Virus record (IMG/VR): IMGVR_UViG_3300021255_000152
Coordinates: 64,001 to 128,000 of that record
DNA length: 64,000 nt
Direction: 5' to 3' (one strand)
Origin: a virus
Taxonomy: Duplodnaviria > Caudoviricetes
The notes below the pieces were generated by a model. That model ran no database searches. It was not told the origin of the DNA and saw only the letters and a list, made by a program, of their open reading frames with translations. The position numbers and the translations under genes are program-made. Each line of letters starts with the position of its first letter. Position 1 is the stretch's first letter. Below are positions 1,254-60,874 of this stretch, one piece after another.

Positions 1254-1290
1254 CTTTTTTATATTTATTGATATATGAAGGAGGTTACTT

Positions 1291-1923: not shown

Positions 1924-1924
1924 T

Positions 1925-3061
1925 ATGGCTATTCAAATTAAAAATGATAATGTATTAATTGGCCATATTAATGATTTACAAAGTTCAATAAATAGTTTGG
2001 ATAGTAGAGTAACTACTGTCGAGAATAAATTCGCGCAATACCTGCCTTTAACGGGTGGGGGGCTTACAGGTAATCTTTCTGTTGGAGGAGTAATAACTGG
2101 AAAACTAGATGGGGCAGCTAGATATTTAACAAGTCCTGATACTAGAAGTGTTGTTATAAACCCATCAGATATTATTGCTTCTGAAAATGGGGTAAGATTT
2201 GATTTTAAATCTTCATCAACCATTGGATTATCTTCTAGTCCTGCTTATAGTGGAGTTATGACTTATAGACCTTATAGTAAAAACAGTGACTGATCAGGTG
2301 GCCCAGCTCATCAAATAGCTTTTAATGCAAATGGTTTATATTGAAGAAAAAGTTCTGGAGATACAACATGAGCTGATTGATATACTATTTTAGACAGTAA
2401 TAATTATACTTCTTATTATCCCACAGGAGTCAAAGACTATAATAATGGAAATACCATTACTTTTGGTTATTCTACTTCTGGAATGTCTTCAACATCTTGA
2501 TTAGGTTCTTGAGATGGTTATAAGTTAAGAGCAATAGCACCTAATGTATTAACAGTTAAATCAGCTTATACTTTAACTATTTCTCACGGTAATGAAATAA
2601 GATTTAATAACAATAGTAGTGCTAGTTCGCTTTGATTTAATTATTTAAGAGAAGATGGTAATACTTGTAACGTGACTTCATTTTACTGAGGAAATGGTAA
2701 TAAAGGAGCTAGTGCAACAATGGTTGCAGGATCTTTTTCTACTTCGAGTTCTAAAAAAATAAAAGAAAATATTTCGGACATGTCAGAAGAAGAAGCTTCT
2801 AAAATATTAAACATAGGAATAAAATCTTTTGATTATAAAGAGGGATTTGGAGAAAAAAATCAATTTGGATGTATTGCAGAAGATATATACAATGAAATTC
2901 CTTCTGTTGTACATATTCCAGATGAATATAATGAAGATACTCCTTTAGAAGAAAACAATATTGGTTTTCCTTCTATTGATTATTCTAAATTTGTTCCATA
3001 TATTATTAAAATGATTCAAATTCAACAAAAAGAAATAAATGAATTAAAAGGAGATCGATAA
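1925..3061 (+). CDS. Tail fibre protein with C-terminal intramolecular chaperone (peptidase S74-like) (378 aa; TGA=Trp)
   Basis: Joins ORFs 1916..2293 and 2720..3061 through ~8 TGA. Motifs YLPLTGGGLTG, LYWRKS..TWADWYTILDSNNY, and C-terminal SSKKIKENI..GCIAED..IDYSKFVPYIIK..Q.Q..EI..L. Confidence 0.85.
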
Positions 3062-3062
3062 T

Positions 3063-3269
3063 ATGCCAACAATTTTAGCTTTTGGCGGAGGTGGTGGTGG
3101 CATGAAATTTATTCGTGCGGCGGCCACTGGTTCAGGCACTTCTATTCAGCCTTATGGATATACTGCAACGAAGTATAAAGATGGTAGTTGAGCCTGGTAT
3201 AATACAGATAATAATTTATTATATTTTTATACTGGTAGTCAGTGAAGAGCTGTCAATACTTATCAATAA
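3063..3269 (+). CDS. Small tail-associated protein (68 aa; TGA=Trp)
   Basis: AAGGAG RBS. MPTILAFGGGGGG...SWAWYNTDNNLLYFYTGSQWRAVNTYQ with 2 TGA. WYNT...YxGxxW is typical of phage tail proteins. Confidence 0.6.
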
Positions 3270-3273
3270 AATT

Positions 3274-3312
3274 AAAGAGGAATACCTTTATGGTATTCCT
3301 CTTATTTTTTTT
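3274..3312 (+). terminator. Intrinsic terminator between convergent genes
   Basis: AAGAGGAATACC-TTTAT-GGTATTCCTCTT followed by a T tract. Confidence 0.7.
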
Positions 3313-3319
3313 GCTTTTT

Positions 3320-3697
3320 AGAAAGAGTAGAATTTTAACCTAATTATCTCTTAATGAAGAGAATACCTTTCAATTTTTTATTTAACCTACGATGAAAACC
3401 CGCTTTTCTCACAGCTCCATATAAAATCTCGCCATTTTTTAAAACATATTTACATCCTTCTAACTCTGAAATTCAGAGAATGTTGATATATAATGCTTTA
3501 TTAACAAGAATAAAATTTTCTGATAGCTTACTAGCGACTTCCTTGGTCGTTTGGTAAGTACAGAAAATTTCATTTGCTGTATGAATGTAGGTTTTCCGGT
3601 CGTAATGGTCGAGGTAGATTATTTCATCTTCCTCTAAGATAATTTTTCTGTTAATTCTAACTTTCATAAAGAGTGAATTAAAAATTCTACTCTTTCT
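3320..3697. repeat. 17-bp perfect inverted repeat bracketing the LytTR gene
   Basis: AGAAAGAGTAGAATTTT at 3320-3336 and its reverse complement AAAATTCTACTCTTTCT at 3681-3697. Confidence 0.8.
3344..3667 (-). CDS. Stand-alone LytTR DNA-binding domain protein (107 aa; TGA=Trp)
   Basis: EDEIIYLD..DRKTYIHT...LSENFILVNKALYINI is LytTR-like. Reading through TGA 3473 gives a full-length domain ending TAA 3344. Confidence 0.75.
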
Positions 3698-3818
3698 TAT
3701 AATATTATATAATAATTTTTATATGTTTAAAAATCAGGATTCCTGAGGCGCATCTTTGTTCTCTGAATTATCTACTTTTTTATATTTTATGAAGATAGAA
3801 AGGAGATATATATCTAAG

Positions 3819-4175
3819 ATGAACAATTATGTTAATCCTTATTGGCCAAATACTTCTATACTTCAAAAACAGGAGGTCGTTCAAGTCAGTGGCCGCAATG
3901 GTGCAGAAATGTACCAAATGGGTCCAAATAGTAGCGCGTTGCTTTTGGATTCGACCGCACCAATAGTGTGATTAAAAGTCACTGATGGAGCTGGCTATCC
4001 TACAATTACCGCTTATGATATAGCTCTACACCAAGAGCCAAAGCAGGTAGATTTATCAGCGATAGAAGAACGGCTATTAAAATTGGAGGAAAAAGTAAAT
4101 GAACAATCAAAACCCGATACTAATGGCACTTCAGGGACAAAGACAACCATCATTAAACCAATTGTTACAAAATAA
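3819..4175 (+). CDS. Phage hypothetical protein (118 aa; TGA=Trp)
   Basis: AAGGAG RBS. VSGRNGAEMYQMGPNSSALLLDSTAPIV-TGA-LKVTDGAGYPT, with a C-terminal coiled coil. Confidence 0.7.
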
Positions 4176-4305
4176 TCCTCAAATGGCATATGTAATGCAA
4201 TATGTACAGCAACATGGAGGAGACCCTAAAGAAGCGTTTTTCGCCATGGCTAAAGAGAAAGGTGTAGATCCTATGAGTATCATAAACGGCCTTAATAATA
4301 AATAA
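4099..4305 (+). CDS. Small Gln/Asn/Met-rich hypothetical protein
   Basis: ORF with GGAGG RBS. GGDPKEAFFAMAKEKGVDP. Confidence 0.65.
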   Translation: MNNQNPILMALQGQRQPSLNQLLQNNPQMAYVMQYVQQHGGDPKEAFFAMAKEKGVDPMSIINGLNNK

Positions 4306-4318
4306 GGAGGATTCGTTT

Positions 4319-4972
4319 ATGGGTGAAAATGGACTTAGCGCAAGCGATGTCGCTTTACTCAATGACCGTAATGGATATGGAGATATGTGGGGCGGAAATT
4401 CTATGATGTGGATTTTTGCTTTATTAATTCTTGCTGGCGGCGGATTTGGTGGCTTTGGCAATAGAAATGCAATCGGTTATGAAAATCTTGCTACTCAGGC
4501 TCAGGTTGATCGTGGATTCGATACACAGAATATGATGGCAAATCAGCGTGAAACCCTTGCCGCAGTAAATGCTGGAACAGCTCAAGCTGTTGCCGCAACT
4601 AACCAGACTTTCCATGATACAATTAATGCGCTTAGTGATAAATATAGCGAATTAGCGAGAGATATTGGTGGTTTGGCTGTTGGACAAGCAGGTCTTCTTG
4701 CTAAAGAAAATGAATGTTGCTGCTCTATCCAGCGTGCTATTGATGGCGTAAATTATAATAATGCCCTTAATACCGCAGCTATTAACGAAAATACAACTGC
4801 GCAGACCCAGAAGATTCTTGATGCTATTACAGGAAACCGTATGGCAGATATGCAGAATCAAATTAATCAGCTTCAACTTCAGCAGGCTGTCGCTGGTGTA
4901 GTTCGTTATCCAAATTCAAGCGCATATTTTGCAGGAAATAATCCTTTCTGCAATTGCGGCGCAAACCTTTAA
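4319..4972 (+). CDS. Gly-rich membrane-segment / coiled-coil phage protein
   Basis: WIFALLILAGGGFGGFG, ECCCS, coiled coil. AAGGAGG RBS. Confidence 0.7.
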   Translation: MGENGLSASDVALLNDRNGYGDMWGGNSMMWIFALLILAGGGFGGFGNRNAIGYENLATQAQVDRGFDTQNMMANQRETLAAVNAGTAQAVAATNQTFHDTINALSDKYSELARDIGGLAVGQAGLLAKENECCCSIQRAIDGVNYNNALNTAAINENTTAQTQKILDAITGNRMADMQNQINQLQLQQAVAGVVRYPNSSAYFAGNNPFCNCGANL

Positions 4973-5043
4973 TCTAATAAGGGGCATATATTGCCCCTTT
5001 CTTTTTTTATCCAAAGGATGAAGTTTAGGGAGGAAAAATTAGT

Positions 5044-5454
5044 ATGATAGATATTTATTCAAAAAACGTAACAGTGGGCGCGAACAGCACAATTCCATTA
5101 AATACAGTTGCCTTATTGAAAGGTACAAGCACACAACCACTAGGTGCAGGTTCTATACAGTTTAATAAATGTGGAATTTACCAAGTAACAGTGTCAGGTA
5201 GTGTAGTAGGTAGTGCTGCTGGAGAAATTGAAATTCAATTAGAGAAAGATGGCGTTGCACAGCCTCAAGCAATTTCTTTAATTACTGCTGCTGATGCTAC
5301 AAGTAATATACCTTTTAGCTTTACTACTTTAGTTCAAGTACCAGACAACAATAATGTTTGTTGCCCTTGCGCGCAAACCACTGTAATTTCTTTAAGAAAT
5401 GCTGGTATTGAAGCAACTTATTCAACAATTGATGTAAATGTAGTTAGAATCTAA
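5044..5454 (+). CDS. Beta-sandwich protein (BclA C-terminal-like)
   Basis: Beta-rich; SIQFNKCGIYQVTVSG pattern. Fold assignment tentative. Confidence 0.5.
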   Translation: MIDIYSKNVTVGANSTIPLNTVALLKGTSTQPLGAGSIQFNKCGIYQVTVSGSVVGSAAGEIEIQLEKDGVAQPQAISLITAADATSNIPFSFTTLVQVPDNNNVCCPCAQTTVISLRNAGIEATYSTIDVNVVRI

Positions 5455-5468
5455 TAGGGAGAATCCAT

Positions 5469-6038
5469 ATGACAGTAGAAGATGTTTTTGCTGAAGTAAA
5501 TGCGCATATGATTCAAGGACTTATGGTTCATAGTCAAATGGCTAATTATTATGGATTTTTAGGTTTAAAAGGATATTCTAAATGTCATTTATACCATTAT
5601 TGAATGGAAGGAAAATGTCATGTTAAGTTAATGGAATATTATTTTAAATATCATAATAAACTTATTAAAGATATGCCAGTAGAAGATCCAAAATTAATTC
5701 CTAAATCTTGATATAATTATGAGATGAAAGATGTTGATATAACTACAAAGCGCAATGCTGTAAAGGCTGGTATGGAAAAATGGGTTGAATGAGAAGAAAA
5801 TACTGTAAAAACTTTTAAAAAAGCATATAAAGATTTACTTTCTCTTGGAGCAGTTGAAGATGCTAATTATATTATGAATTTATTAGAAGAAGCTAGAGAA
5901 GAGTTAAGTGAAGTAAAATATTGACATATGATGAAAATTGCACAAGATTTTGAAATCGGACCAATTTTAGCTGAACAAGATAAAAAACAGCATAAATATA
6001 AGAAAAAAATTCATAAGCATTGTTGCTGTTGTGAATAA
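5469..6038 (+). CDS. Ferritin-like four-helix-bundle protein (189 aa; TGA=Trp)
   Basis: Absent from the ORF track (4 TGA). GLMVH.QMANYYGFLGLKGY.KCH.YHY..E..H and WVEWE..T. C-terminus HKHCCCCE. Confidence 0.7.
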
Positions 6039-6054
6039 AAAATGGGAACGCTTA

Positions 6055-6083
6055 TTGCGTTCCCTTATTTTTTTTGTTATAAT
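6055..6083 (+). promoter_or_regulatory. Sigma-A-type promoter of ycaO (overlaps upstream terminator hairpin)
   Basis: TTGCGT-17 bp-TATAAT with TG extension. Confidence 0.55.
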
Positions 6084-6104
6084 CTATTTAAGGAGATTGT
6101 CCTA

Positions 6105-7865
6105 ATGAATAAAGAAATTTTAGACTATAAATATAAAGAAAGAACTCCAACGGAAACAGTACAAATTATAAAGGATTTTTTTGAGAAAAAAGGATTTACT
6201 CTTGACTTAGAACATGAAGGTGCTTCAGAGGCTGGAACATATAGTTGCCATATTAAATTATTTTTTGAGGGTGACTTTATTATGTTTTCTAATGGAAAGG
6301 GTGCTACTCGAGATTTAGCTTTAGCTAGCGGATATGCAGAAATGTATGAACGTTTTTGTAATGGTATGAAATCTTTTACTCAGAAAAATTTCTATCATAA
6401 AGTTAAAGAAGTTTGTGAAAAAACTTTTGGATATAAAATTCATCCTCAAGAAAAACAATTAACTTATGAACAAGCCGTATTAGAAGAAAACAATGTTAAT
6501 AATTATTATTCTGTAGTAAGTAATTACAATGAGAAAATTAAAGAAAGAATTGCCAGAACATTAACAAATGATGAATTTATTGGATTACCTTATAAAAATG
6601 TTTTAACTAATGATATAAAATATATTGACCCACAATTAGTTTTAAGATTTGACAATAGTACAGGTATGTGCGCAGGTAATACTTATGAAGAAGCTTTTAA
6701 TGAGGGATTTTCTGAAATATTAGAACGATATTGCTATATTGATTTATTTGGTTCAGAAGGATTAGAAAAATATCATGTTGTAGATTTAACTAAAATAGAA
6801 AATGAGATATTGCGCGAAAAAGCTGAAAATATTAAAAAAGCGGGATATGATTTTTATTTAGTAGATATGTCTTATGAATATGGATTACCTGTTGTTATGG
6901 GACTTTTGGTCAATACTAGAGATCATTTTTGCAGACTTAATTTTGGTAGTTTTCCTATTTTTGAAGTTGCAGCAATGCGCACAATAACAGAAGCATATCA
7001 AAATGTAGATTCTTTTAAAAAATATGAAGATTTAATTCAAGTTCCAGCAGAGAAAAATTTTAACCTTAGTGCATTTTTAAAAGAAAATGGTACTGGATTA
7101 TCTGCTGCTGCTTTTGCGCCAGCTCATTTTTTCACTAGAATTGAACAAATTGATTCTTATAATAAAAATTTTTATATGGACGTTAATTCTACTCCTAAAG
7201 AAATTTATGAATATTATATGCATTTTATTGCAGAGAATGATTTAAATGTTTGGGTGATTGATAATAGTTTAATGAAAGAAGTATTTTCTTTGCATATATA
7301 TGTAGATAATCTCTCTTATAGTTATCCAATGGATTATTTAGTTGAATATAACGATATTAATTATAGATATCTATTTGATCAAATGGAAATTATGAAGAAA
7401 TATGAATATATGATGTATGATATCTCTCCAAATTTTCAAGATATAGATCATTTTGATGTAGAAATTTTATTAGCAAAAGATATAGGCACAAGTTTAGTTA
7501 CATTATTAATGTATTCTCAAACAATCTATCCTTATTTTATTGATTTTGATCCATTTATAAGAATTGTTTTAGATATGGATGAATTAAATTCTGGTACAAT
7601 AGTACGAAAATATTGTTGGACTTTCCTTTTTCCTTATTGTAAAAGATATTATACAATTAGAAGATATGTAGATTCTAATTATTCTTATGAAGAAATGTTA
7701 CCAATTATGGAAAAATTAGGCATTAAGAATTTTTCTAAAGAGGAATATGAACATGCCGCAGATTTGAATTATTTATTGCGAAAAATTTTAATTGAACCAT
7801 GTTGGAATTATTATCATTCAGATAGATATGAAAAATTTTGCCTAGCATTAATAGAAAAAATATAA
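6105..7865 (+). CDS. ycaO: YcaO-family ATP-dependent peptide-backbone-activating enzyme (586 aa)
   Basis: SNGKGAT..LA.ASGYAEMYER and STGMCAGNT.EEA..EG.SEILER ATP-binding motifs. Start at 6105 behind AAGGAG. No in-frame TGA and no C-terminal PxP tail. Confidence 0.9.
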   Translation: MNKEILDYKYKERTPTETVQIIKDFFEKKGFTLDLEHEGASEAGTYSCHIKLFFEGDFIMFSNGKGATRDLALASGYAEMYERFCNGMKSFTQKNFYHKVKEVCEKTFGYKIHPQEKQLTYEQAVLEENNVNNYYSVVSNYNEKIKERIARTLTNDEFIGLPYKNVLTNDIKYIDPQLVLRFDNSTGMCAGNTYEEAFNEGFSEILERYCYIDLFGSEGLEKYHVVDLTKIENEILREKAENIKKAGYDFYLVDMSYEYGLPVVMGLLVNTRDHFCRLNFGSFPIFEVAAMRTITEAYQNVDSFKKYEDLIQVPAEKNFNLSAFLKENGTGLSAAAFAPAHFFTRIEQIDSYNKNFYMDVNSTPKEIYEYYMHFIAENDLNVWVIDNSLMKEVFSLHIYVDNLSYSYPMDYLVEYNDINYRYLFDQMEIMKKYEYMMYDISPNFQDIDHFDVEILLAKDIGTSLVTLLMYSQTIYPYFIDFDPFIRIVLDMDELNSGTIVRKYCWTFLFPYCKRYYTIRRYVDSNYSYEEMLPIMEKLGIKNFSKEEYEHAADLNYLLRKILIEPCWNYYHSDRYEKFCLALIEKI

Positions 7866-7880
7866 AAAAAAGATGGAGAA

Positions 7881-8129
7881 TTAGTCTTTAACCAAATCCC
7901 CTAGGATTGTGACTAATTCTCCATCTTTTATCATGTGTTTTATCCATATCTCATAAGAGAGCGGACGCATTTCATCAAGACGACGTGAATACTCAATTAA
8001 TTCTTCATCAGTAAATTCTTCTAAATACATTAAAATAAGACTTCGTATTTTTACTTCATCTTTTGGAATGCCAAAAAAGTAATTAATTGTTTCTTTTACA
8101 AACTCTTTTTGTTGATGACTAAGGCTCAT
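7881..8129 (-). CDS. Hypothetical protein, last gene of the radical-SAM operon
   Basis: 82-aa ORF with GAGGTG RBS. Confidence 0.6.
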   Translation of the reverse strand: MSLSHQQKEFVKETINYFFGIPKDEVKIRSLILMYLEEFTDEELIEYSRRLDEMRPLSYEIWIKHMIKDGELVTILGDLVKD

Positions 8130-8145
8130 TTTTATTCACCTCTTT

Positions 8146-8628
8146 TATAAATTTTAATAAAAAATCTTTTCCATTTAAAGCTAAAATTGATAAAAATACA
8201 CAATAGGCACTAGTTCCAGTTATTCCTATATCCTGTTCATTTACATTTGTAGCTCAATGAAGAGTATAATTTGCAGAAAATATATTCGATATACATCATG
8301 GATATTGATACTCTTCATCTACTGCTGCAATAACAATATTATTATTTGCTAATTTTATTCATTTTTTTATATCTACTTTTTCAAAAGCAATTGGAACGCA
8401 AATAATAGAATTTTTTATATTAAAATCAATATTAGCTTCATCCATAAAAGTAATTTTTATATTATTTTTTAAATAAGGATAAAATTCATTTTTAAACAAA
8501 TTTAAAATTATCTCTTTATGAAAATTATCTTTATCTATTAAAATAATTTGTTGATTAAAATTATCTAAGGGGATGAGTTTTTGGAATAATTTATCTGTTG
8601 CTAAAAAAGATTCTGATGTTGTTAGCAT
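8146..8628 (-). CDS. Hypothetical protein (160 aa; TGA=Trp)
   Basis: ORF 8359..8628 continues through 3 TGA to TAA 8146 and fills the gap to the next gene. Confidence 0.65.
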
Positions 8629-8837
8629 TAGCCGTTAATTTCAATATCACTATTTGTACTTTCAGAAGTCTCTGGTTTAACATTAGAGCCTAAAATATTA
8701 CTAATAGCAATAATTTGATCATCAGTTAAAAGACCTCTATCAATGTATGTTAATGTCATTTGACGAGCATTAGTTTCATCAATTTGCGCAAAATAACACA
8801 AAGATTCAAAAATAAACTGTAAAGCAACTTGACTCAT
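8628..8837 (-). CDS. Small hypothetical protein
   Basis: 69-aa ORF, tightly packed between neighbours (TAATG overlap with the downstream gene). Confidence 0.6.
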   Translation of the reverse strand: MSQVALQFIFESLCYFAQIDETNARQMTLTYIDRGLLTDDQIIAISNILGSNVKPETSESTNSDIEING

Positions 8838-8838
8838 A

Positions 8839-9804
8839 TTATTTTCCCTCCATTATTTGATCGCAGTAAGAACAATGTCAGCATTCTCCTTTGCAATTTC
8901 TTCTATATAAAAGTCATTTTTGAGGATACTTTATTTGTTCCTCTGGATTTAGATAAATACAAGAACCAGAAATACAATCTAATAAATATGTTGGATTAGT
9001 TCTTGTTGCATAATATTTTAAAATTTTAGATATTTTTTCTGTAGGTAAAGTTCTATCTTCTAGCTTGAATCCATTAAAATATTGATTATAATAATCTAAT
9101 TCTTCTGGTAAAATAAATGGTCCTTTTAATCAATTATGAGTAAATTGATCGGTTAAAAGATTAAAAGTTTCTCTTATTTCAAAAGTATCATTTTCTTTTC
9201 AAGAAGAATTATTTGAACAATATGCGTTTTGATGCCAATAATATAATGGACAATTTATCCTACAAATACTATTTACAATTGTTGAATATTTTATTGAAGT
9301 TTGAGATGTTAAAATTTTTAACATATCCTCATTTCTATTTAAGTCTTGTGGCAAACATATTTCTTGAATATACCCAAGCTTTTCTATTTCTTTTATTTTA
9401 TTTAAATCTTTAATACCAGATAAAATACTTAATCGAATTTTTAAATTAGGAAAATTTATGTATATTCAATGTGCTAAAATTGGATCAGCTACGACTACGC
9501 CAAAAAGTCCAAAAGAACATAGTTTTTTTATATTTTGGCGTAAAATTGTAAGATTATAATTAGAATAATCTATCTTTGAAGAATTTAGAACGACCATTGG
9601 TTTAATATCATATTGATTCATTGTTTGACATAGATAAGATATTATTTCATTATATTTTTCAATATTTGGATAATCGTTTTGTCTAGCACTAGGAAATATA
9701 TCTGGATGTAGTGGAAAGTATATTTCAGAAATATATTTAGAGTATTTTTTATATAAATCTAAAACTTTTAAATCTAAATTAAAGGGGACTTGTAATTTTT
9801 TCAT
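8839..9804 (-). CDS. Peptidase-U32-family Fe-S protein (321 aa; TGA=Trp)
   Basis: VVVADP.L, IRLSI, QDLNRN, IVNSICRINCP, FILPEELDYY..FKLEDR, and C-terminal CKGECWHCSYC. 5 TGA. Confidence 0.75.
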
Positions 9805-10892
9805 TCTTTAAACTCCATTTTATTACTGGCATGAATAGAAAAAATTATTTTATTATTTATTAGAGTTTCTTCTCTAAGATGCTTTTTTAAAACTTTTAAG
9901 CATCCATCATAGAAAGTTTTATTATAAGCACATTGAGCCAAATCTTTATGATATTCTTTTCCTATAAATCCAGTAAAAGGACACTTTCCTCTACATGTTA
10001 TGACATACTTACAATGCTTACAATCTTCTAATTGTTGCTGACGGGTGTTTCTTAAAATATTGCGAAATTCCGATTGTTCAATTTTTTGTTTAAGATTTTC
10101 TTTATCCGTAAATACATTTGCCATACATGTTTCATCGCTTCAAGGCTTTCCGCATGAATAAACGCCGCCATCTGGATGAATTCCATATCAATGTCCAACG
10201 CAATTTTTTCCTTCACAAAAGAACAATTCTTTTCCTTCAATATAAGAAAGTATTTCATCAAAAGGTCTGTCTAAATCATCTGTTTCTGTAATGCATATAT
10301 AATCAAATAATTCAACCATTCTTTTGGCTAATTCAATATGGTCTTCAATCGTTAATCCAATTCCAAAAGCTGTATTAAAAATTAGATTAAACTCATTATC
10401 TCGCGCAAATTGATAAGATTCAATAATTCTCTTACTATTCTCTGGAGTCATTGTAAAAATAGCATTTACAACAACTCCTTTTTCTTTTCCTCGTTGCATT
10501 AATTCAAAGAAATTTCTTGAACCTCTAGATATATTATTATCAATACCATCCCAAGAACTTCCTATGTTTATTTGCAATTTTTTAAAATAATCTAATCAAG
10601 CATCATTTATTAATGTTCCATTTGATTGAAAAGCTCAATTAATAGGTTTATCGGAAAAATGTTGTGTTACATTTTTAAAATAATCAAGTCCTAAAATTGA
10701 AGGTTCCCCTCCATGTCAAATAATTTCTCAAGACTCATTTGGATCAATAGCAATTATATTTTCAAGTGCTTCAATAGCTTGTTCTTGGGTCATTTCTAAA
10801 GGATGTTCTGCATCTCGATTATTTTTTTCATAACAATAAGTGCATTTTAAATTACATCTATATGTTGGTTTAAATATTACTGTATTTGACAT
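9774..10892 (-). CDS. Radical SAM/SPASM enzyme (372 aa; TGA=Trp)
   Basis: KPTYRCNLKCTYC, IIWHGGEP (TGA at 10716), QSNGTLI. SPASM cysteines C..C..DGGVYSC..CKHCKYVITCRGKCP..C. 7 TGA. Confidence 0.9.
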
Positions 10893-12210
10893 AATCTTTT
10901 TGTAGTTCCTCCTTTAAGTATGCTGGCATATATAATTGCTGAATTAAATATTGTTTTAAAGTAGGATTTAATTTAACAAATTCTTTTGGTGTTAAATTTC
11001 CTAATTTATCATAAATATATGGGACAATAGCTTTTCAAAATTTACATTGTGCAGAATATGGCTTTAATCCTTTTGATTCTTTTAAAGAACAATTCAAACA
11101 GCCTTGACCGCAAACAGGAAGATAATCACAGTTTAAACATTGATTTTGTATTTGAGTTTGTTTTAGTTGTTGTAATTTTAAGCTTTTATCTCCATTAAAG
11201 AAATCTTTAATTGAATTAAGCTCATCTATATTGCAAACATGCATTTCTTCAATACTTGTGTCATCACATCTATATAATTCACCATCTGCGTTAATACAAA
11301 TACGATTTGAATATAAGCAATTATCTAAATTGCATATCTCAGCAGAACGATTTAATGCTCGACGTATATAAGCGAGAGCAGATCGTTCTGGAACTCTTGG
11401 ATTATTATCATATATAAAAAATTCTAAATATTTTTTATACTCTTGGATAAATTCATCTATATCTAAGAATTTTTCTAATGGATTATTAGTAGTACCAAAT
11501 ACTGCATTAAAACTAAAAGGAACTCCATTATCAGAAGCCTTTTTAGAATCTGCAATTAAATTTTTAACATTTTGTTTAGTAATTACAGATATTATAAAAT
11601 AAAAATTAGATAATTTTTCTTGAGATAATTCATATCCTCTACATTGCTGCCCACTTCAGTCATAACTGGTTCCAATAGGAACATTATATTTATCTAAAAG
11701 ATATTTTCATTCATCATCTAAAAGAGTTCCATTACTTTGTGCATTAAAAATTAATTTTATATCTTCTTTAATAGCATATTTATACATTTCTAAACAAACA
11801 TCATCAAATCATTGTTTATCTACTGTTAAGAACTCTCCTCCATGTCAAGTTCATTCGATTTTTGAATAACCTTCTTCATTTAATAATCTAAGTAATCTTA
11901 AAATGCGCTCTTTTGATAAAACCATTCTTGGTTTTTGCTGATTTTTTTTATCAAAACAATAAATACAGTTTTGATTACAAAAATTTGTCACTTTACAAAT
12001 AACTTCACAATTATTATAACAATGATGATCGTTTCAATCTCCTTGGAATGTTTTTTCTGAATCCTTTTTTCCCAAAAGAACTTGTAGATATTCGTTTTTT
12101 AATAAAGAGTAATAATTTTGAATTCCTTCTTCTGTAGTTTCATCAATAACTTGATTAAAGTCAATGTTTGGAAGATAATTATCAAAATCTATATAATCAC
12201 TATATTTCAT
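10870..12210 (-). CDS. Radical SAM/SPASM enzyme with ~65-aa N-terminal extension (446 aa; TGA=Trp)
   Basis: KVTNFCNQNCIYC, EWTWHGGE (TGA at 11845), QSNGTLL. SPASM C..C..DGELYRC..CLNCDYLPVCGQGC..C. 7 TGA. Confidence 0.9.
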
Positions 12211-12598
12211 TGAAACCTCCTATATAATGAATAAAATCATTATCTTGTTTATTTTCTTGTGGAGATTTTAAAATATAAATAGTTAATTTATTTTCAATAC
12301 AATATTGAATTATCACATTGATATATTGTAAGGGATAATCTTTAGAAAGGTCAAAGATAACACCACCATTTATAATATCTATATTATTAATTAAATTTTC
12401 AACAGAAGTTTTTGTTATTTTTGTAAAAAGATAATATAAATCAATTCTAGAATCTCAATTATTAGCAATAAATCTTTTTTTAAAAAATTCTGGAATTATT
12501 TTATCTTCAAAAGATAAAGCTATCTTGCATTCTTCTGTTTTGTCGAAAACATGACGAATATTTTTATAAATATCTTTATCATATTGAAAAATTTTCAT
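12200..12598 (-). CDS. Hypothetical protein (132 aa; TGA=Trp)
   Basis: MKIFQYDKD...IGGFNEI with 1 TGA. Fills the space between the putative substrate gene and the rSAM gene. Confidence 0.65.
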
Positions 12599-12600
12599 AA

Positions 12601-13782
12601 TTAATCTCCTGTTCCTAAATATGTAAGTAAATCTTGAATATCAATAATTTTTTGATTTTCAATAAATTCATCTACTCCTCCACCAGTAGAATAATTTGGG
12701 TTATTTCCTGTTCTTAAATTATAAGCTGTTGATGTTCCTTGGCGCATTTGAAGAATATCTTCCCATGTAATAATGGTAAAATTAGAAACTACTGGACTAT
12801 TTGTAAAAGTAACAGTAGTTTGACCCATTGCAGTGAGAACTTTATTTACTTCTCCTTGTACCTGATCTTCATTTGGTTTAGTATAATAGTCAGTATTTCA
12901 AGTAGGAGCTGTATAGTGATAAATTCTAATTGGAGAAGAGACTGCGGCATAAGTGGTTTCGTATGCGGTTGTATCTTGTCTAACATTACTATAACCAGTA
13001 CCATTATTTGATGCAGTAACTGCATTGGTAGCATGATTTTCAATATGATGATAAGTTCAGCCATTTCCTGAAGGAATAGCACTCCAACTACCATTATCAT
13101 AAACAGTAACACCAATTTTATACCAACCAGCGGTTAATGAAGTAGCTGTTCAAGTATAAGAGGTTGAAGTCTGTTCTGATAATAAGGTCCAATTTCCATA
13201 AGTACCGTTTTGGGTAGCACAATATTGATAATATATACGAAATTTTGTGGCTGTGCTAGTATTATCATCAGAATATATTAATGATGTTAATATAATTTTT
13301 ATAGATTTGCTGTTATAATATCTAGAATTTGCAAATGTTGAACCAGATACTTGAGGTGCTTTATTGGTAGTGTTTGTTGGAGTTCTTCCAGTTTCTACTG
13401 TTGTATTAACTGCTGCAGTGTTGGTGTGATTATTATATCCAGTATTTCTATGGTTACTATATCCACTATTTGTATGGTTATTATATCCGCTTTTAGTATA
13501 TCCACCATTGTTTGTGTGGTCATCATAACCTCTGTCGTTATGATTTGCGTATCATCCATCATTCATAGTTCATCCAGAACTTCTTCTATCGGTATGATCG
13601 TCACTACCGCTATTTCTATGGTTGCTATAATTTCTATGGTTATTATATCCAGTATTTCTATGGTTATTAGCACCAGACTGAGAATAATTATTATAACCTG
13701 ATTGACGATATGCAGAATTTGTATGTCTATAATTTATTCTATATCCATTGGTATGAACCGCTTTTTGATGAGATTTAATCAT
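12601..13782 (-). CDS. Putative modification substrate: Y-x-N/H-x-N repeat array + Thr-rich linker + Ig/Fn3-like domain + C-terminal domain (393 aa; TGA=Trp)
   Basis: ATG 13782 behind AAAGGAG. A single frame links ORFs 13570..13836 and 12601..12828 through TGA at 13570, 13552, 13150, 13057 and 12898. Confidence 0.85.
13414..13755 (-). repeat. Degenerate coding tandem repeat, unit ~(S/T)GY(N/S/D)(N/D)H(R/T)(N/D)
   Basis: For example SGYNNHTN SGYSNHRN TGYNNHTN. DNA unit AACCATAGAAATACTGGATATAAT recurs. Confidence 0.85.
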
Positions 13783-14734
13783 TTTCTTTCTCCTTTCTAT
13801 ATCCAAGACAGGCGCAATAAAGTCCCGTTCGAGCATGTCTTGGACAAGATAAGCATTCTTTTTGAGGCGGAGTTTTTCTTAGAGAATCTTCTTCCGCATG
13901 AAGTAAATCTAATATTTCATCAAAAGTTTCAAACTCTGATAAAGCATGTTTGAACTTGTTGCATCCAAAACAACCAATAATATCTAATTCTGGCGTAACA
14001 TCTAAGGCAGAACCATCACAAGCAAAACTTCCAAAAAATGATGGGTCTATCTTCATAGCAAATGCAACGAAATCATCGTCATATGCGCAAATAGGCGGAT
14101 TATTACAATCGCAAGAAAATGTTACATTATATTTGGTTGCCCAAGTCAGCATTTCTTTTAATATAGGTTGAAATTCATGAAAATACTGTTTAAAATTAAA
14201 ATCTTTAGATAATTTCATATTTGGTACAGTAATTGACCATCTAATATCAGAAATATTATATTTTGCAATAATGTCTTCCCAAAAGCTCATATCTTGATGC
14301 GGATCAAAAATATTAATACTAATACGACTTACAGCATTTGGAATGCATAAAGAAAGATAGTCTAAATTACGTTCTATCGTAGGAAGAAATTGCGGATTAT
14401 TGTTAATATTTGGTAAAAATTCAATAAAAATTTCATCACTATATTCCACAATTTTTTGAGCAAATTCAAAAGAAAATGAAAAATTAGAAAAAACTAACAC
14501 GGAAGAAAAACAATCATAAGAAATTATAATATCTAATAAATCAAAAAATTGCGGATGTAATGATGGCTCTCCTCCGATAAGTCTAACATTTTTTTCATTA
14601 TTTTGCTTTAAAAAATCTAAATATATTTTAAAGTTATCTAAATTTATATTTTTTACTGTATTTGTTTTCATTTCTGTTTGCGCGAAGCAATAAGGACAAT
14701 GAAAATTGCAATAAGTATTTATCATTAAGTTCAT
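13775..14734 (-). CDS. Radical SAM enzyme with Cys-rich C-terminus (319 aa), first gene of operon
   Basis: CNFHCPYC, IGGEP, and C-terminal C..GCFGC..CLSC..CAC. No in-frame TGA. Confidence 0.9.
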   Translation of the reverse strand: MNLMINTYCNFHCPYCFAQTEMKTNTVKNINLDNFKIYLDFLKQNNEKNVRLIGGEPSLHPQFFDLLDIIISYDCFSSVLVFSNFSFSFEFAQKIVEYSDEIFIEFLPNINNNPQFLPTIERNLDYLSLCIPNAVSRISINIFDPHQDMSFWEDIIAKYNISDIRWSITVPNMKLSKDFNFKQYFHEFQPILKEMLTWATKYNVTFSCDCNNPPICAYDDDFVAFAMKIDPSFFGSFACDGSALDVTPELDIIGCFGCNKFKHALSEFETFDEILDLLHAEEDSLRKTPPQKECLSCPRHARTGLYCACLGYRKEKEND

Positions 14735-14752
14735 AGTCTATACCTCAATATA

Positions 14753-14781
14753 ATTCTATCAAAAAAAAACGCTTCTGTCAA
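14753..14781 (-). promoter_or_regulatory. Near-consensus sigma-A promoter of the radical-SAM operon
   Basis: TTGACA-17 bp-TAGAAT with TG extension. Confidence 0.75.
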
Positions 14782-14890
14782 GACCTATTATGTTTAAAAA
14801 AAGGTCTAAAATAATTAATATTAAACGGCCAATTTATGTTAAAAGCCTTTTTGACTCTTTAAAATACAAGAGAGAGAAAGGAGAAGAAAT

Positions 14891-17368
14891 ATGTTAAATT
14901 TATGCTTACCTATGAAGGTGATTAACATTACTCAACATTCTGGTAGTAATTTTAGTCATCCAAATGGCGCACTCGATTTAGCAGGTTCTGATGCTGGAGT
15001 AGATTTTGCTTTTGCTCTTGGTAATTACTGAAGATGTATTGCAGGACCTTGAGGAAGTAATACGTATTTCTTCACCGCATCTGACGCAAAAGGTAATCCA
15101 GTTACAGTTCATTGCGCGGATGGAGTGAATAGAATTGTTACCGTAGCTATGACTCATAGTAATTTAAGGTATAATAAACCTATTATTGGTAAAGTTTATT
15201 CTGATGGTGAAGCGATATATGAAGAAGGTACTGCAGGTCAAGCAACAGGTAATCATATTCATTTTGAAGTGGCAGAAGGCTTGCATTATAGTAAAACAAA
15301 AGACTATAATTTAAATGTATATCGTATGCCAAATGAATTAAAACCAGAAGATGTTTGCTTTATCTGTGATAGTTTCTCTAAAGTTAAGAGCATGGGTGGA
15401 GTAACGATGAAACATTGTGATACACCTTATTATGAAACGCAAGATACTAAACCAGTATTAGGAACACTACGCGGTATTGATATTAGTAACTGGCAGGCAA
15501 GTATGGATGTGGCTGCGGTCAGTGCTGATTTCGTAATCCTAAAAGCTAGTGAAGGCGTAGATTGGAAAGACCCTGCGTTCGATACATTACTTGAAAAGGT
15601 TAAGAAAACCGATAAGTTAATCGGTTTTTATCATTTTGCACGTCCAACCGCAAACAACACTCCAGAAGCTGAAGCTGAAAGTTTCTTGAAGTTTATTACT
15701 CCTTCTGGATTAATTGGCAAGGCTATTCTAGCTTTGGACTGGGAAGCTGAAAATAAACAAAATGTTGCTTATGCTAAAGCATGGCTTGACTATGTTTATA
15801 ATAAAACAGGTGTTAAGCCTTGGATTTATATGAGTGAGTCTGTTACCAAGAATTATGATTGGAGTTCTGTTGCAAACGCTGGTTATCCTCTTTGGGTAGC
15901 TAAGTATAGAGATAAGTCTCAAGATTATAATTATGATATGACTAATGCGGGAACAGCACCACAGGTTAATTATTGGAATAATTATATTATGTGGCAATGG
16001 ACTGGTGTTGGTAGATTAGACAGTTATAATGGAGATATTGATTGCAATTTATTCTACGGAACTGCTGATACTTGAAGAAGTTTAGCTGCTCCAGTAGAAG
16101 ATGAATTAGCACAATATACTGACCTTGAGCTTGCGCACATGGTTCTTGAAAATAAGTTCGGCACAGGCGAAGAACGTAAAAAAGCTTTAGGCGATAGATA
16201 CAAAGCGGTTCAATTAATTGTAAATCAATTAGTTAAAGAACAGCAAGAACAAAAGCCTTCTATTGATGTTGGACCTGTTGTCAAATATTCAATTCAATAT
16301 AATGGATTAACTGTTCATATTGCAAAGATCAAAAAAGATCAAGAGATTAGAGGTTCTGTTGATGGAAATAGATATGGGGTTAAATATGATAAAACTGTTC
16401 CAGCAGGATTCTCTGATAAGGATTTACTTAATGCCGGTTATCAAGAAGCTTGCGCGCAAAATGGTTCAACATTCTATTCATGGAATGGCGCCACTTATGC
16501 AGAAGGCATTGAGATTTCTAAGGGTATAAATAATCAAGATTTTTATATGGATGCAGTTTCTAAATTTAATAGTGTTATGGCTATTGGATTTCCATATACT
16601 GGTGGAATTGTATTTGCGCCACAAAAAGAAATTGTTGAAACTTATTCTAGATATTATGGAGCAGTAACGGGCATTTTTGGAATTATTTATGAAGGAAAAC
16701 AAAATGCTATGGGAAGTTCTATTAACCGCAATGGAGGATTTACTGTAAAAAGTGGGCGTTCTATCCTTGCGGAAGATGAAGATTACTATTATTCTATTTG
16801 TTTTGTTGGAGATACTGGTTCTACTGGTCTTACTGGAAAAGAGCTTTATAATTTATGTATAACCGTGTCTAAAAATATGATTAATGCTATTTGCTTTGAT
16901 GGTGGTGGAAGTGTATTCCAAAGAATTGAAGGTGAATATACAATCAATACTACTCGTCAAGTTAAAAATGGTATTATGTTATTTATTAAAGATGATGAAT
17001 CTACTTCACAAGAACCAAAAGATGAAACACCAGTAAATCCTTTAGATAAATATTCTGACGAAGAGTTGGCAGATATGGTTCTTGACGGAAAATTTGGTTC
17101 TGGGGATGCACGAAAAGAAGCTCTTGGAAATAGATATATAGCAGTTCAAACTATCGTTAATATAAGAGTTATTAACGCTTATTTAAGAGCAGGAGATAAA
17201 ATCCGTATTAAAAATAATGCTAAAGATTTAAATACAGGAACTACTTATATCAAATCAGTCTATTTAACAGTATATAAAGTAAAAGAAATTTCTGAAAATA
17301 GAGTAGTATTTGGTACAGATAATGCAATTATTGGCGTTGTTTCTAAAGATAATATTATATTAGAATAA
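14891..17368 (+). CDS. Multidomain endolysin: M23-like peptidase + GH25 muramidase + Cpl-7-like repeat + phosphodiester-glycosidase-like domain + Cpl-7-like repeat (825 aa; TGA=Trp)
   Basis: AAGGAG RBS. HPNGALD and GNHIHFE (M23-like); GIDISNWQ..KASEG..GFYHF..LDWE..WQWTG (GH25); two LAxMVLxxKFGxGxxRKxALGxRYxAVQxIVN repeats; AICFDGGGS. TGA at 15029, 15050, 16073. Confidence 0.85.
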
Positions 17369-18081: not shown

Positions 18082-18453
18082 ATGATTTTTGATTATGATT
18101 CTTTTTTTAACTGGGATAAGCCAGCATATACTTTTAGTCGCTCTGTCCATGATATGTCACCGTATAAAATTAAAACTTTAGAAGATAGAGTTGTATTGGT
18201 TCATAATATCGTGGGTGTTAAAGAGAAAGATATTAAAGTTGATATTGTAAATGAAGACGGAAGAGATCAGCTTGTCATTGAAGGTGTAACTCACAATGAC
18301 GTATTGAACTATGATTATAAAGTTAAATCTAAATTTGATATTAAAGCTGATATGTTTAAAAACGTCACATATAGTGTAGAGGATGGACTTCTTTACATTA
18401 ATTTGTATAAAAAAGAACCAGAAGTAGCAAAATTAACTGTTACTAAAGCTTAG
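18082..18453 (+). CDS. Small heat-shock protein (Hsp20/alpha-crystallin)
   Basis: GVKEKDIKVDI..LVIEG..VEDGLLYINLYKK. Confidence 0.75.
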   Translation: MIFDYDSFFNWDKPAYTFSRSVHDMSPYKIKTLEDRVVLVHNIVGVKEKDIKVDIVNEDGRDQLVIEGVTHNDVLNYDYKVKSKFDIKADMFKNVTYSVEDGLLYINLYKKEPEVAKLTVTKA

Positions 18454-18480: not shown

Positions 18481-18551
18481 AGGGGTATCGTTCAACGGTA
18501 GGACAGTGGTCTTCAACACCATATATGTGGGTTCGAATCCTACTACCCCTG
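18481..18551 (+). tRNA. tRNA-Trp with UCA anticodon (opal suppressor)
   Basis: Cloverleaf: AGGGGTA/TACCCCT acceptor with G discriminator (Trp-like); D arm GTTC/GGAC; anticodon arm GTGGT-CT TCA AC-ACCAT (TCA at 18513-18515); T arm GTGGG-TTCGAAT-CCTAC. Confidence 0.92.
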
Positions 18552-18569
18552 CTATTATTGAGGTGTTTT

Positions 18570-19253
18570 ATGAAATATGCTTATGTTACATTGTTAAGTT
18601 CTGATGATTATATTTGAGGAGTCCTTGGATTAAAATATAGTTTAGAAAAAAATAATTGTAAATATCCGCTAGTCACAATAGTAACAAATGATATTTCTCA
18701 AAAAAATTTAAATTTATTAAAACAAGAAAATATTATTATTAAATTAGTAGAAAAACAAGTTTTTCAGAATATCTCAAATGACCATAGATATAAAACTTGT
18801 ATAAATAAGCTATATATTTTTGGTTTAAGTGAATATGAAAAAATATTTTTTCTTGATGCTGATTGTATTGTTATTTATAATTTAGATTTTTTATTCAATT
18901 ATGATCTTCCAATATTTTCTATAATTCCAGATATAGAAACTTCTTATAGTCGTGGATATATTTGAGGAGGTGCTTTTTTAGTAAAACCTTCTTTAAAATT
19001 AAAAGAATACTTTTTTCAAATAGCACCAAATTTTGATACTGATGAAAAAATTCTTAATGATTTTTTCCAAAATTTTAATTTTAAAATTTTTAATGCAAGC
19101 TTTTTTATCATACACGACTATAATCCGATTAAAAAGTATTGGGAGAGATATTCTTTAAAAGATAAAGAAAAAATAAAAAATTTTATTGATAATTCAACAT
19201 ACTTAATTATGGAAAAAACAAATTGAATATATTCAGAAATTTTACCACATTAA
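18570..19253 (+). CDS. Glycosyltransferase family 8 (glycogenin-like) (227 aa; TGA=Trp)
   Basis: Absent from the ORF track (3 TGA). YAYVTLL..DDY..GV..L..SL and KLYIF.L.EYEKIFFLDAD (DxD motif). Confidence 0.85.
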
Positions 19254-52947: not shown

Positions 52948-52972
52948 TACACAATCAAGAACTCAAGAAATA

Positions 52973-60870: not shown

Positions 60871-60874
60871 AGAG

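Follow-up and report, generated by a model that had tools for sequence, protein, structure and literature searches.

A TGA-recoded gut-type phage carries a conserved radical SAM, U32 and YcaO operon that probably modifies a phage repeat protein

Main finding

A large gut-type phage that reads the stop codon TGA as tryptophan was found to carry a conserved operon of three radical SAM (rSAM) enzymes and a U32 iron-sulfur protein, on which a YcaO gene converges. The operon is built around a 393-residue protein with His/Tyr/Asn repeats, and thus chemistry in the style of peptide antibiotics is probably used here to modify one of the phage's own late, probably tail-associated, proteins. No chemistry has been observed, and this explanation is held with moderate confidence. 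No paper describing this system was found, although the stop codon recoding itself is already described (Borges et al., bioRxiv 10.1101/2021.08.26.457843).

Organization of the operon

The window, a stretch of 64,000 nucleotides (positions 64,001 to 128,000 of the IMG/VR record IMGVR_UViG_3300021255_000152), was translated with tables 11 and 4. Under table 11 the minus strand between 8.1 and 13.8 kb showed only fragments of 51–129 aa, while under table 4 the ORFs abutted or overlapped by 1–31 nt, forming a single operon. The features are as follows:

6044..6064 (+), terminator-like hairpin (8 bp stem, 6 GC pairs, T-run) between the 189-aa gene and YcaO
6105..7865 (+), YcaO-domain protein (586 aa), without in-frame TGA, convergent on the operon
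7881..8129 (-), small acidic protein (82 aa), last gene of the operon
8119..8628 (-), protein of unknown family (169 aa, 3 TGA)
8628..8837 (-), small protein (69 aa)
8839..9804 (-), U32-like Fe-S protein (321 aa, 5 TGA)
9774..10892 (-), rSAM-C, radical SAM/SPASM enzyme (372 aa, 7 TGA)
10870..12210 (-), rSAM-B, radical SAM/SPASM enzyme with a ~70-aa N-terminal extension (446 aa, 7 TGA)
12200..12598 (-), conserved protein of unknown family (132 aa)
12601..13782 (-), probable substrate (393 aa, 5 TGA)
13775..14734 (-), rSAM-A, radical SAM enzyme with 8 further conserved Cys (319 aa, no TGA), first gene of the operon
14753..14781 (-), promoter-like site (TTGACA-17-TAGAAT with TG) directly upstream of rSAM-A
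18481..18552 (+), suppressor tRNA with anticodon UCA, needed to read the operon

The whole set lies between tail-fibre genes and the endolysin, as tail and tail-fibre PHROGs matched the genes at 1243–3061 and endolysin families matched 14891–17368. The hairpin places the start of YcaO at 6105, not at 6042, and its relatives are 576–586 aa long. The start of the 393-aa protein at 13782 (a 411-aa form would start at 13836) was confirmed, since the homologues begin with the same MIKSHQKAVHTN. The promoter-like site showed 11 of 12 matches and was the best of the region, although the number of such sites in the region as a whole is no more than chance gives.

A preliminary description based on the sequence alone had proposed this gene order, the family assignments, the convergent YcaO, the position between tail-fibre and lysis genes, the need for TGA=Trp, and the absence of a transporter, protease or immunity gene in this copy. 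All of these were confirmed, the last by searches in which no such family was found in the operon. Its interpretation, that a phage protein is modified rather than a secreted product being made, is supported but remains an inference.

Evidence for TGA as tryptophan

The TGA codons W77, W211 and W295 of the substrate lie in invariant Trp columns, where the TGA-free homologue from the related locus L002 has TGG. In rSAM-B, W120 and W122 are TGA and align with W-I-W of the standard-code Dehalobacter enzyme. All 61 ORFs listed end in TAA or TAG, and the tRNA with anticodon UCA was detected with ARAGORN. These data are in accordance with the TGA-to-Trp recoded gut phages ("Agate" and other clades) of Borges et al., in which the paper does not mention radical SAM or YcaO genes (0 occurrences): the genome is large (a 138-kb record), in-frame TGA is confined to structural and lysis genes, a suppressor tRNA is present, and the replication side uses the standard code.

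Characteristics of the enzymes

Pfam and NCBIfam profile searches identified Radical_SAM in the three enzymes, all of which have CxxxCxxC. For rSAM-A, Radical_SAM scored 35.8 bits; C9/C13/C16 and GGEP are invariant, and C210, C216, C239, C255, C294, C297, C307 and C309 are also conserved. For rSAM-B, Radical_SAM scored 39 bits and the SPASM domain TIGR04085 39.5 bits, over its cut-off of 27; it is 24% identical over its full length to the Dehalobacter 486-aa enzyme (E 2e-28). For rSAM-C, Radical_SAM scored 57 bits and SPASM 21.3 bits; full-length matches were obtained to anSME (E 1e-33) and DynA (E 9.5e-32), all below family cut-offs, and in the PDB anSME 4k37 was matched (E 3e-15). The Pfam SPASM scores of rSAM-B and rSAM-C lie just under their cut-offs.

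Both SPASM enzymes scored best against peptide and protein maturases (anSME, DynA, AmcB, PapB) and not against DNA-base or cofactor enzymes, and the PDB hits were anSME, CteB and the triceptide synthase ChlB. However, no enzyme reached the curated cut-off of any named maturase family, and thus the type of cross-link is a guess from motif resemblance. For rSAM-A alone, the best NCBIfam hits were weak, N-terminal-only matches to viperin, MoaA and QueE, and phages may carry radical SAM genes for DNA modification. That the enzymes are auxiliary metabolic or nucleic-acid-modifying genes that only happen to lie beside a repeat protein is nevertheless very unlikely, as the repeat gene lies inside the operon and overlaps rSAM-A by 8 nt, and this arrangement is kept in two divergent phage clades and, with homologous enzymes, in Peptococcaceae.

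The U32-like protein matched Peptidase_U32 (PF01136) just over its cut-off (23.1 against 22.4 bits). C181, C185-P186, H191, C304, C308, C311 and C314 were invariant in 7 homologues, including the standard-code Dehalobacter protein, which scores 46 bits on PF01136. YcaO matched PF02624 (123.8 bits) and TIGR00702 (110.7 bits), both over their cut-offs. No family was found for the 82-aa protein, and no Pfam hit for the 169-aa and 132-aa proteins.

The repeat protein

The 393-aa protein has a short conserved N-terminus (MIKSHQKAVHTN), a ~125-aa disordered H/Y/N repeat region, a Thr-rich linker, a predicted FN3 domain and a predicted three-helix C-terminal part. The AF2 model of residues 140–393 had a pLDDT of 84 and a pTM of 0.80, and the FN3 fold matched with Z 9.9 and rmsd 2.5 A over 96 residues. 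The repeat unit is S-G-[Y/C]-x-N-H-[T/S]-[N/D]-[S/T]. The repeats are not a chance pattern: 11 of 12 His in the first 139 residues sit in H-x-[N/D], against a mean of 3.0 in 20,000 shuffles, none of which reached 11. Additionally, the DNA shows 24-nt tandem repeats at 13416–13499 and 13630–13676.

The family is small, with only 40 hits among 1.84 billion representatives, and every full-length member carries the repeat region; the single apparent exception is a mis-called start that hides about 500 aa of repeats. There is no direct evidence that the protein is in the virion; PHROGs gave no hit and the fold search showed only a generic FN3 domain.

Distribution in related loci

The cassette recurs in nine fetched phage or prophage loci: five with the full gene order of the window (L001–L005), three of a sister clade, and one cut fragment. 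It is conserved as a unit at the tail-fibre/lysis junction; in L012 it lies between Baseplate_J/Gp48 and holin/amidase, with no other fibre gene there. The core is rSAM-A, the repeat/FN3 protein and two or three SPASM enzymes. In all eight loci that reach past rSAM-A, a repeat-bearing gene lies next to the enzymes.

Loci L010, L011, L012 and L008 have the order S8 protease, rSAM-A, small gene, substrate and SPASM enzymes, although in L008 only the first SPASM enzyme was identified before the contig end and the rSAM-A slot was not checked. YcaO and U32, which the preliminary description had counted among the members of the cluster, are accessories of one clade and not the core; the sister clade lacks both and carries an S8 protease and a fourth rSAM. 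Orthologues of rSAM-A of 32–92% identity lie in the related loci, with 32–36% identity over the full length across both clades. YcaO orthologues lie in L001, L002, L004 and L005. The 132-aa protein is present in all six clade-1 loci and was not related by hhalign to the 94–100-aa protein of clade 2. Counterparts of the 169-aa protein lie in L001 and L004 (169 aa) and L005 (174 aa, 26% identity), those of the 82-aa protein in L001 and L004 (79–81 aa), and those of the 69-aa protein are 59–73 aa in the relatives.

A homologous enzyme set (SPASM enzyme, U32, rSAM-A) surrounds a Tyr/Asn/His-repeat Ig-like protein with a signal-like N-terminus in the chromosomes of Dehalobacter and other Peptococcaceae (five loci, L017–L019, L021 and L022). 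On the other hand, more distant rSAM-A homologues (27–30% identity) in Bacteroidota and a Clostridium relative (L014–L016) sit in ordinary RiPP-like clusters with no such repeat protein.

Proposed function

We propose that this is a phage-encoded protein-maturation cassette, whose target is the disordered N-terminal repeat region of the 393-aa protein. The three radical SAM enzymes would abstract hydrogen atoms from side-chain carbons, most likely at the beta-carbon of the invariant Asn/Asp two residues after each His, and join these carbons to the neighbouring His and Tyr rings, or to Cys where Cys replaces Tyr. Each 8-residue unit would thereby become a small macrocycle, and the whole segment a rigid, protease-resistant stalk. 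The U32 protein would add an oxygen-independent tailoring step such as hydroxylation, and YcaO would either activate backbone amides with ATP or assist rSAM-A. The matured protein, carried by its FN3 and helical domains, would work outside the cell, most likely as part of the tail or fibre apparatus or as a surface-binding accessory.

A precursor holding many copies of a small peptide is not excluded, although it is considered unlikely. In this reading the repeats would be cross-linked, cut out by the S8 protease in the sister clade and by an unknown or host protease (or the U32 protein) here, and released at lysis as a bioactive or signalling peptide, the FN3/helical part serving only enzyme docking or solubility. 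Repeat number is highly variable, from about 5 units in L003 to about 30 units of 16 residues in L008; the S8 subtilisin-like protease is the first gene of the clade-2 cassettes; clade-2 proteins have a 30–45-residue leader-like N-terminus ending in a conserved ..(D/E)(E/D)(Y/F)xLxNLH(T/S)NTGY; and the cassette lies next to the lysis genes. However, the C-terminal 250 residues are the best-conserved part of the protein and are confidently predicted to fold, which is unusual for a disposable follower segment. Clade 1 has no recognisable protease apart from the weak U32 match, and characterised U32 proteins appear to be hydroxylation factors. No exporter or immunity gene was found in the operon, and the Dehalobacter cognate looks like a secreted protein with an Ig-like domain.

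It is also doubtful, although possible, that the repeat region is turned into an in-protein functional group rather than a mechanical stalk, such as redox-active or adhesive residues (for example, hydroxylated Tyr/His made anaerobically by the U32 protein) or a His/Tyr/Cys metal-binding array, the protein then binding a host surface or a metal. The composition is rich in His, Tyr, Cys, Asn and Asp, a U32 Fe-S protein accompanies SPASM enzymes both here and in Dehalobacter, and SPASM enzymes seem to make Tyr-derived cofactors in the PQQ and mycofactocin pathways, MftC being among the weak NCBIfam hits. Nevertheless, there is no sequence link to PqqE or MftC above background, and the sister clade has no U32.

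Comparison with known systems

The repeat unit resembles the aromatic-x-x motifs of triceptides (HtkB, HaaB, YhhB, XyeB, ChlB; PMC11499958), whose enzymes are also radical SAM/SPASM. Precedents are the His-x-x cyclophanes HTK, HAA and HNR (PMC11499958) and, with Asn as the third residue, the WVN cyclophane of xenorceptides (bioRxiv 10.1101/2024.12.16.628070). Weak sequence hits were obtained to YhhB, XyeB, GrrM/OscB and AmcB, and to PDB ChlB, without reaching any family cut-off. Here there are three enzymes rather than one, plus U32 and YcaO, and the substrate is a ~400-aa protein with predicted folded FN3 and helical domains, not a short peptide, encoded by a phage at the tail/lysis junction.

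The anaerobic sulfatase-maturating enzyme (anSME; TIGR03942, PDB 4K36-39) was the best full-length match of rSAM-B and rSAM-C, but the scores (117 and 82 bits) are far below the cut-off of 349. It is a SPASM enzyme that modifies a full-size protein rather than a leader-bearing peptide, and rSAM-A and rSAM-C, like anSME, have no N-terminal recognition domain. The sulfatase C/S-x-P/A-x-R motif is not a conserved feature of the repeat region, and the formylglycine chemistry is unlikely to apply. Among the dynobactin and darobactin maturases (DynA, DarE), DynA was the second-best full-length match (110 bits, cut-off 450). These enzymes would link aromatic side chains (Trp, His) to side-chain carbons of residues such as Asn, Lys and Tyr in short motifs, but their products are small secreted antibiotics from Gram-negative bacteria, with an exporter and one enzyme per cluster.

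Weak hits, below the cut-offs, were also obtained to QhpD and PapB. In these systems a SPASM enzyme installs several side-chain cross-links to Asp/Glu carbons, either in a polypeptide that stays a structural part of a larger assembly (QhpC) or in tandem C-x3-D repeats (PapA). Cys replaces Tyr in many members of the substrate family, but the window's own substrate has no Cys in the repeat region.

The best solved relative of the phage YcaO is E. coli YcaO (4q84, E 8.7e-16), of similar length (586 aa), which assists the radical SAM enzyme RimO on an Asp beta-carbon of ribosomal protein S12. NF040716 scored 97.5 bits against a cut-off of 700, rSAM-A is not a methylthiotransferase by any match, and the functional link is an inference.

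Pairing of YcaO and rSAM-A

YcaO and rSAM-A are both TGA-free, with 0 of 6 Trp codons being TGA against 28 of 34 in the other seven operon genes (Fisher p 2.4e-4). This suggests that YcaO and rSAM-A can be made before TGA suppression sets in, and the substrate and the other enzymes only after it, although the pattern is not absolute, as one relative (L004) has a TGA in rSAM-A. Additionally, YcaO and rSAM-A are adjacent in L005 and overlapping in the Bacteroidota loci L014 and L016.

Organization of the gene cassette

Under translation table 11 the minus strand between 8.1 and 13.8 kb was broken into fragments of 51-129 aa. When TGA was read as Trp, the fragments fused into nine ORFs that abut or overlap by 1-31 nt, and the following features were recognized:

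13775-14734, minus strand, rSAM-A, 319 aa
12601-13782, minus strand, repeat protein, 393 aa
12200-12598, minus strand, a 132-aa protein
10870-12210, minus strand, rSAM-B, 446 aa
9774-10892, minus strand, rSAM-C, 372 aa
8839-9804, minus strand, a U32-like protein, 321 aa
minus strand, three small proteins of 69, 169 and 82 aa
from 6105, plus strand, a YcaO gene, ending 15 nt from the last of the small genes

The assignments were confirmed with Pfam and NCBIfam. Tail and tail-fibre genes lie upstream, and an 825-aa endolysin (14891-17368, plus strand) with GH25, a NAGPA-like domain and two CW_7 repeats lies downstream. This endolysin is a single ORF only if three TGA codons are read through, and its relatives have single ORFs of 809-822 aa. 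The window is part of a 138-kb IMG/VR virus record.

A GC-rich hairpin with a T-run was found at 6044-6064, between YcaO and the gene for a 189-aa protein (5469-6038, plus strand). The latter contains 4 TGA, ends in HKHCCCCE and showed no Pfam or PHROG hit; a 189-aa gene lies in the same position next to YcaO in L001, a related contig. The best promoter-like site of the region (TTGACA-17-TAGAAT with an extended -10) lies at 14753-14781, directly upstream of rSAM-A. These data support the YcaO start at 6105 proposed in the preliminary description and mark the start of the operon. The 393-aa start of the repeat protein is supported by homologues that begin with the same MIKSHQKAVHTN.

Genetic code

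The TGA codons of the repeat protein (W77, W211, W295) fall in invariant Trp columns, and the homologue from the related contig L002, which has no TGA at all, uses TGG at these positions. In rSAM-B, the two Trp of the W-x-W-H-G-G-E motif are both TGA and align with W-I-W of a standard-code Dehalobacter enzyme. None of the 61 ORFs listed ends in TGA, all of them ending in TAA or TAG, and a suppressor tRNA with anticodon UCA was located at 18481-18552. A 123-aa gene (18082-18453, plus strand), weakly HSP20/alpha-crystallin-like (Pfam E 0.005, below the cut-off), lies immediately upstream of this tRNA, and an array of nine ordinary tRNA genes (Leu, Thr, Tyr, Glu x2, Ile, Arg, Val, Met) is found at the far end of the window (60789-63981, minus strand).

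TGA-bearing genes cluster at 1-20 kb, while the long minus-strand block at 20-64 kb is almost free of them. Three ORFs (52405-53034, 54590-55111 and 19933-20436, minus strand) inside or beside this block carry 4-7 in-frame TGA, and may be real recoded genes or spurious table-4 frames. The overall pattern has already been described for gut phages by Borges et al. (bioRxiv 10.1101/2021.08.26.457843), who do not mention radical SAM or YcaO genes. Within the operon, YcaO and rSAM-A use TGG for all six Trp, whereas the other seven genes use TGA for 28 of 34 (Fisher p 2.4e-4). The same holds in four of five relatives, with one TGA in rSAM-A of the related contig L004.

Conservation in phages and prophages

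No close DNA or protein relatives were found in the GenBank phage collection, and pattern scans of IMG/VR with rSAM-C and with the repeat protein gave no match. In the 5.8-billion-protein collection, rSAM-A has 18 homologues. Five contigs with DNA (L001-L005, clade 1) repeat the full gene order next to a GH25/CW_7 endolysin and tail-fibre genes, except that L003 lacks a YcaO within 10 kb and has an SH3/NAGPA lysin. YcaO is convergent in L001, L002 and L004, while in L005 it lies directly upstream of rSAM-A on the same strand.

A profile of the C-terminal 254 residues of the repeat protein retrieved only 40 proteins among 1.84 billion representatives. Every full-length hit has an N-terminal region rich in His, Tyr, Asn and Cys. 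The single apparent exception, the 254-aa database protein P0041, which looked like a natural control lacking the repeats, is a truncated gene call with a mis-called start: in its locus L008 (5826-8145, plus strand) the open frame continues upstream for about 500 residues of CSDYTDAHYTNAYSR-type repeats, 16-residue Cys/Tyr/His/Asp units, the stretch starting with a leader-like MPLKINTDVKNDFKLSNMHNETGY.

The more distant members define a second clade (loci L008, L010, L011 and L012), with the gene order S8 protease, rSAM-A, a ~95-aa gene, a repeat protein with a longer leader-like N-terminus and three rSAM/SPASM genes; L008 is cut after its second downstream gene. This clade has no YcaO and no U32. 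rSAM-A is orthologous between the clades (32-36% identity over the full length), and the SPASM enzymes are paralogues of each other. No relation was detected by hhalign between the 132-aa protein of clade 1 and the 94-100-aa protein of clade 2. In L012 (GenBank CP063353.1), a prophage-like element in a 3.83-Mb chromosome, the cassette fills the gap between Baseplate_J/Gp48 and holin/amidase, and no other fibre gene lies there.

Homologous clusters in bacterial chromosomes

A scan of species-representative genomes with rSAM-A yielded five Peptococcaceae loci, in Dehalobacter and Dichloromethanomonas (L017-L019, L021 and L022). Their gene order comprises a 486-aa SPASM enzyme, 24% identical to rSAM-B over its full length, a 397-aa U32 protein (PF01136 46 bits; 25% identical to the phage U32), a 259-aa protein, a lipoprotein-like gene and an rSAM-A homologue. 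The 259-aa protein has a hydrophobic signal-like N-terminus, Tyr/Asn/Trp/His repeats (NYSNYSNY, ENHTQWENHTETW), a PPPS linker and an Ig-like part by sequence pattern. The neighbours are cellular genes, namely a prepilin peptidase, an HD-domain protein and cobalt transport genes. The cluster occurs twice in one Dehalobacter chromosome (L017, positions 2230-9597, and L022), and in L017 it lies downstream of a type IV prepilin peptidase gene.

In two Bacteroidota loci (Marinifilaceae and Prolixibacteraceae; L014, positions 6176-15267, and L016, positions 6179-13825) a YcaO gene overlaps the rSAM-A homologue, followed by a second rSAM-like gene, a LanC-like protein (confirmed by Pfam only in L014) and one or two more YcaO-like genes, judged from sequence motifs. 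No repeat protein was seen in these two loci, which represent an uncharacterised RiPP-like cluster type. In a Lachnospiraceae MAG (locus L020, 5211-7945) an rSAM-A homologue follows a tail-fibre-like protein and a 338-aa protein, which has an FN3-like N-terminal part by sequence pattern and an extremely Tyr-rich C-terminal half. The association of the enzymes with a repeat protein thus holds for the closer relatives and for an independent cellular lineage, but not for the most distant homologues. That the genes encode unrelated metabolic enzymes was considered very unlikely.

Features of the repeat protein

Residues 1-139 of the repeat protein are predicted to be disordered. They contain 12 His, 11 of them in H-x-[N/D], against a mean of 3.0 in shuffled sequences, with no shuffle in 20,000 reaching 11, and also 8 Y-x-[N/D]. 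His residues are often 8 apart, and the DNA shows 24-nt tandem repeats. Over 145 units from 24 family members the consensus is S-G-[Y/C]-[N/S/D]-N-H-[T/S]-[N/D]-[S/T], in which Tyr (55) and Cys (22) alternate at one position. An alternative reading, considered unlikely, is that the repeat domain carries an in-protein redox, adhesive or metal-binding group.

A first AF2 model of the whole protein from 6 sequences was poor (pLDDT 43), but residues 140-393 were modelled with confidence when 27 sequences were used (pLDDT 84, pTM 0.80). The predicted fold is an FN3 sandwich (Z 9.9, rmsd 2.5 A over 96 residues against titin FnIII) followed by three helices. Foldseek searches against PDB and BFVD and a wide structural alignment (VIA-align) gave only generic FN3 matches, one of the many being the FN3 domain of a lambda tail-tip chain, and no whole-domain match was found; a weak gp11 baseplate hit has an rmsd of 15 A and is not meaningful. 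No PHROG hit was obtained, and the position of the gene in the tail-fibre slot of L012 is the only support for a role as a tail fibre or virion structural protein.

On the other hand, the protein could be a multi-core RiPP precursor that is cut into peptides. This possibility is favoured by the variable repeat number and by the S8 protease and the leader-like N-terminus of clade 2, but the strongly conserved, well-folded (as modelled) C-terminal half and the lack of an exporter count against it, and it was judged unlikely.

Affiliation of the enzymes

A CxxxCxxC motif together with a C-terminal Cys-rich auxiliary-cluster domain, taken as the criterion for radical SAM/SPASM peptide or protein maturases, was recognized as follows. 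Pfam Radical_SAM was detected in all three enzymes; TIGR04085 is over its cut-off in rSAM-B, the Pfam SPASM score of rSAM-C is 21.3 against 21.5, and rSAM-A has 8 conserved extra Cys. The best full-length matches of rSAM-B and rSAM-C are anSME and DynA, followed by other peptide cross-linkers, and none comes near a family cut-off. Scores for the anaerobic sulfatase-maturating enzyme (TIGR03942) were 116.9 and 81.5 bits against an equivalog cut-off of 349.45. With respect to triceptide synthases (3-CyFE: XyeB, YhhB, GrrM/OscB, AmcB, FxsB), rSAM-C scored 44.6-89.5 bits against cut-offs of 310-450, with matches covering mostly the N-terminal core only, although a potential precursor with aromatic-x-x motifs is encoded next to the enzyme genes. 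The cassette did not correspond to the His-Xaa-Ser system (HxsABCD), since HxsB scored 62.3 and 57.3 bits against 370 and the repeats are H-x-N/D, not H-x-S.

The YcaO domain was identified with 123.8 bits (PF02624). However, the score for the azoline-forming SagD type (TIGR03604) was 53.8 bits against 219, and no E1-like/Ocin-ThiF partner or TfuA was found in any operon protein. The score for the E. coli-type YcaO (NF040716) was 97.5 bits against 700, although E. coli YcaO is the best PDB relative. The U32-like protein passed the PF01136 gathering score only marginally (23.1 against 22.4 bits), an assignment backed by six invariant Cys and one invariant His across seven homologues.

Proposed function

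A dedicated, co-inherited enzyme set surrounds the repeat protein, while the chemistry is inferred. His-x-x cyclophanes (HTK, HAA, HNR; PMC11499958) and an aromatic-x-Asn cyclophane (WVN; bioRxiv 10.1101/2024.12.16.628070) are made by single SPASM enzymes in triceptide pathways. Side-chain cross-links between His/Tyr (or Cys) and the Asn/Asp of each unit are therefore proposed, with the U32 protein and YcaO acting as tailoring or helper enzymes. This particular chemistry is inferred and considered less likely than not. That the enzymes mature the repeat domain of this protein is considered likely, whereas it is about as likely as not that the product is a virion or tail component. The combined explanation is held with moderate confidence.

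Stop-codon recoding is known, as is the radical SAM/SPASM maturation of peptides and of a few proteins (sulfatases, QhpC), but no description of a phage radical SAM/YcaO/U32 protein-modification system was found in literature searches. The present cassette has His/Tyr/Asn repeats, a conserved non-canonical rSAM-A, U32, YcaO and a bacterial counterpart. It is possible, although somewhat less likely than not, that phages and prophages of anaerobic Firmicutes build part of their tail or adsorption apparatus from a protein whose repeat domain is converted into a chain of carbon-carbon (or thioether) macrocycles by dedicated radical SAM, U32 and YcaO enzymes. This would be RiPP chemistry used for virion construction, with a module shared with secreted repeat/Ig-like proteins of Peptococcaceae and an expression staged by stop-codon recoding.

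If this reading holds, radical SAM peptide-crosslinking chemistry, known from small secreted natural products, is also used by viruses to mature a full-size protein of their own, probably one exposed on the particle, which would be a new type of virion maturation. It would also add a new substrate motif, H-x-N/D paired with Tyr or Cys, and new enzyme combinations (SPASM with U32, YcaO with rSAM-A) to RiPP enzymology. Additionally, the data show that standard-code annotation hides whole pathways in recoded phages, and the TGA-free status of YcaO and rSAM-A within a recoded operon offers a concrete case for testing the idea that recoding times gene expression.

The repeats were also considered as N-x-S/T glycosylation sequons, because a GT8 gene recurs nearby, but only 2 of the 11 units fit N-H-[S/T] on inspection and this was rejected. 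The GT8-family glycosyltransferase is found near the cassette in the window (18525-19253, plus strand), in L001 (3762-5186), in L002 (4870-5577) and in the Lachnospiraceae locus L020 (8541-9335), where it lies directly downstream of the rSAM-A homologue. The window ORF overlaps the suppressor tRNA at its 5' end, so its true start is probably later.
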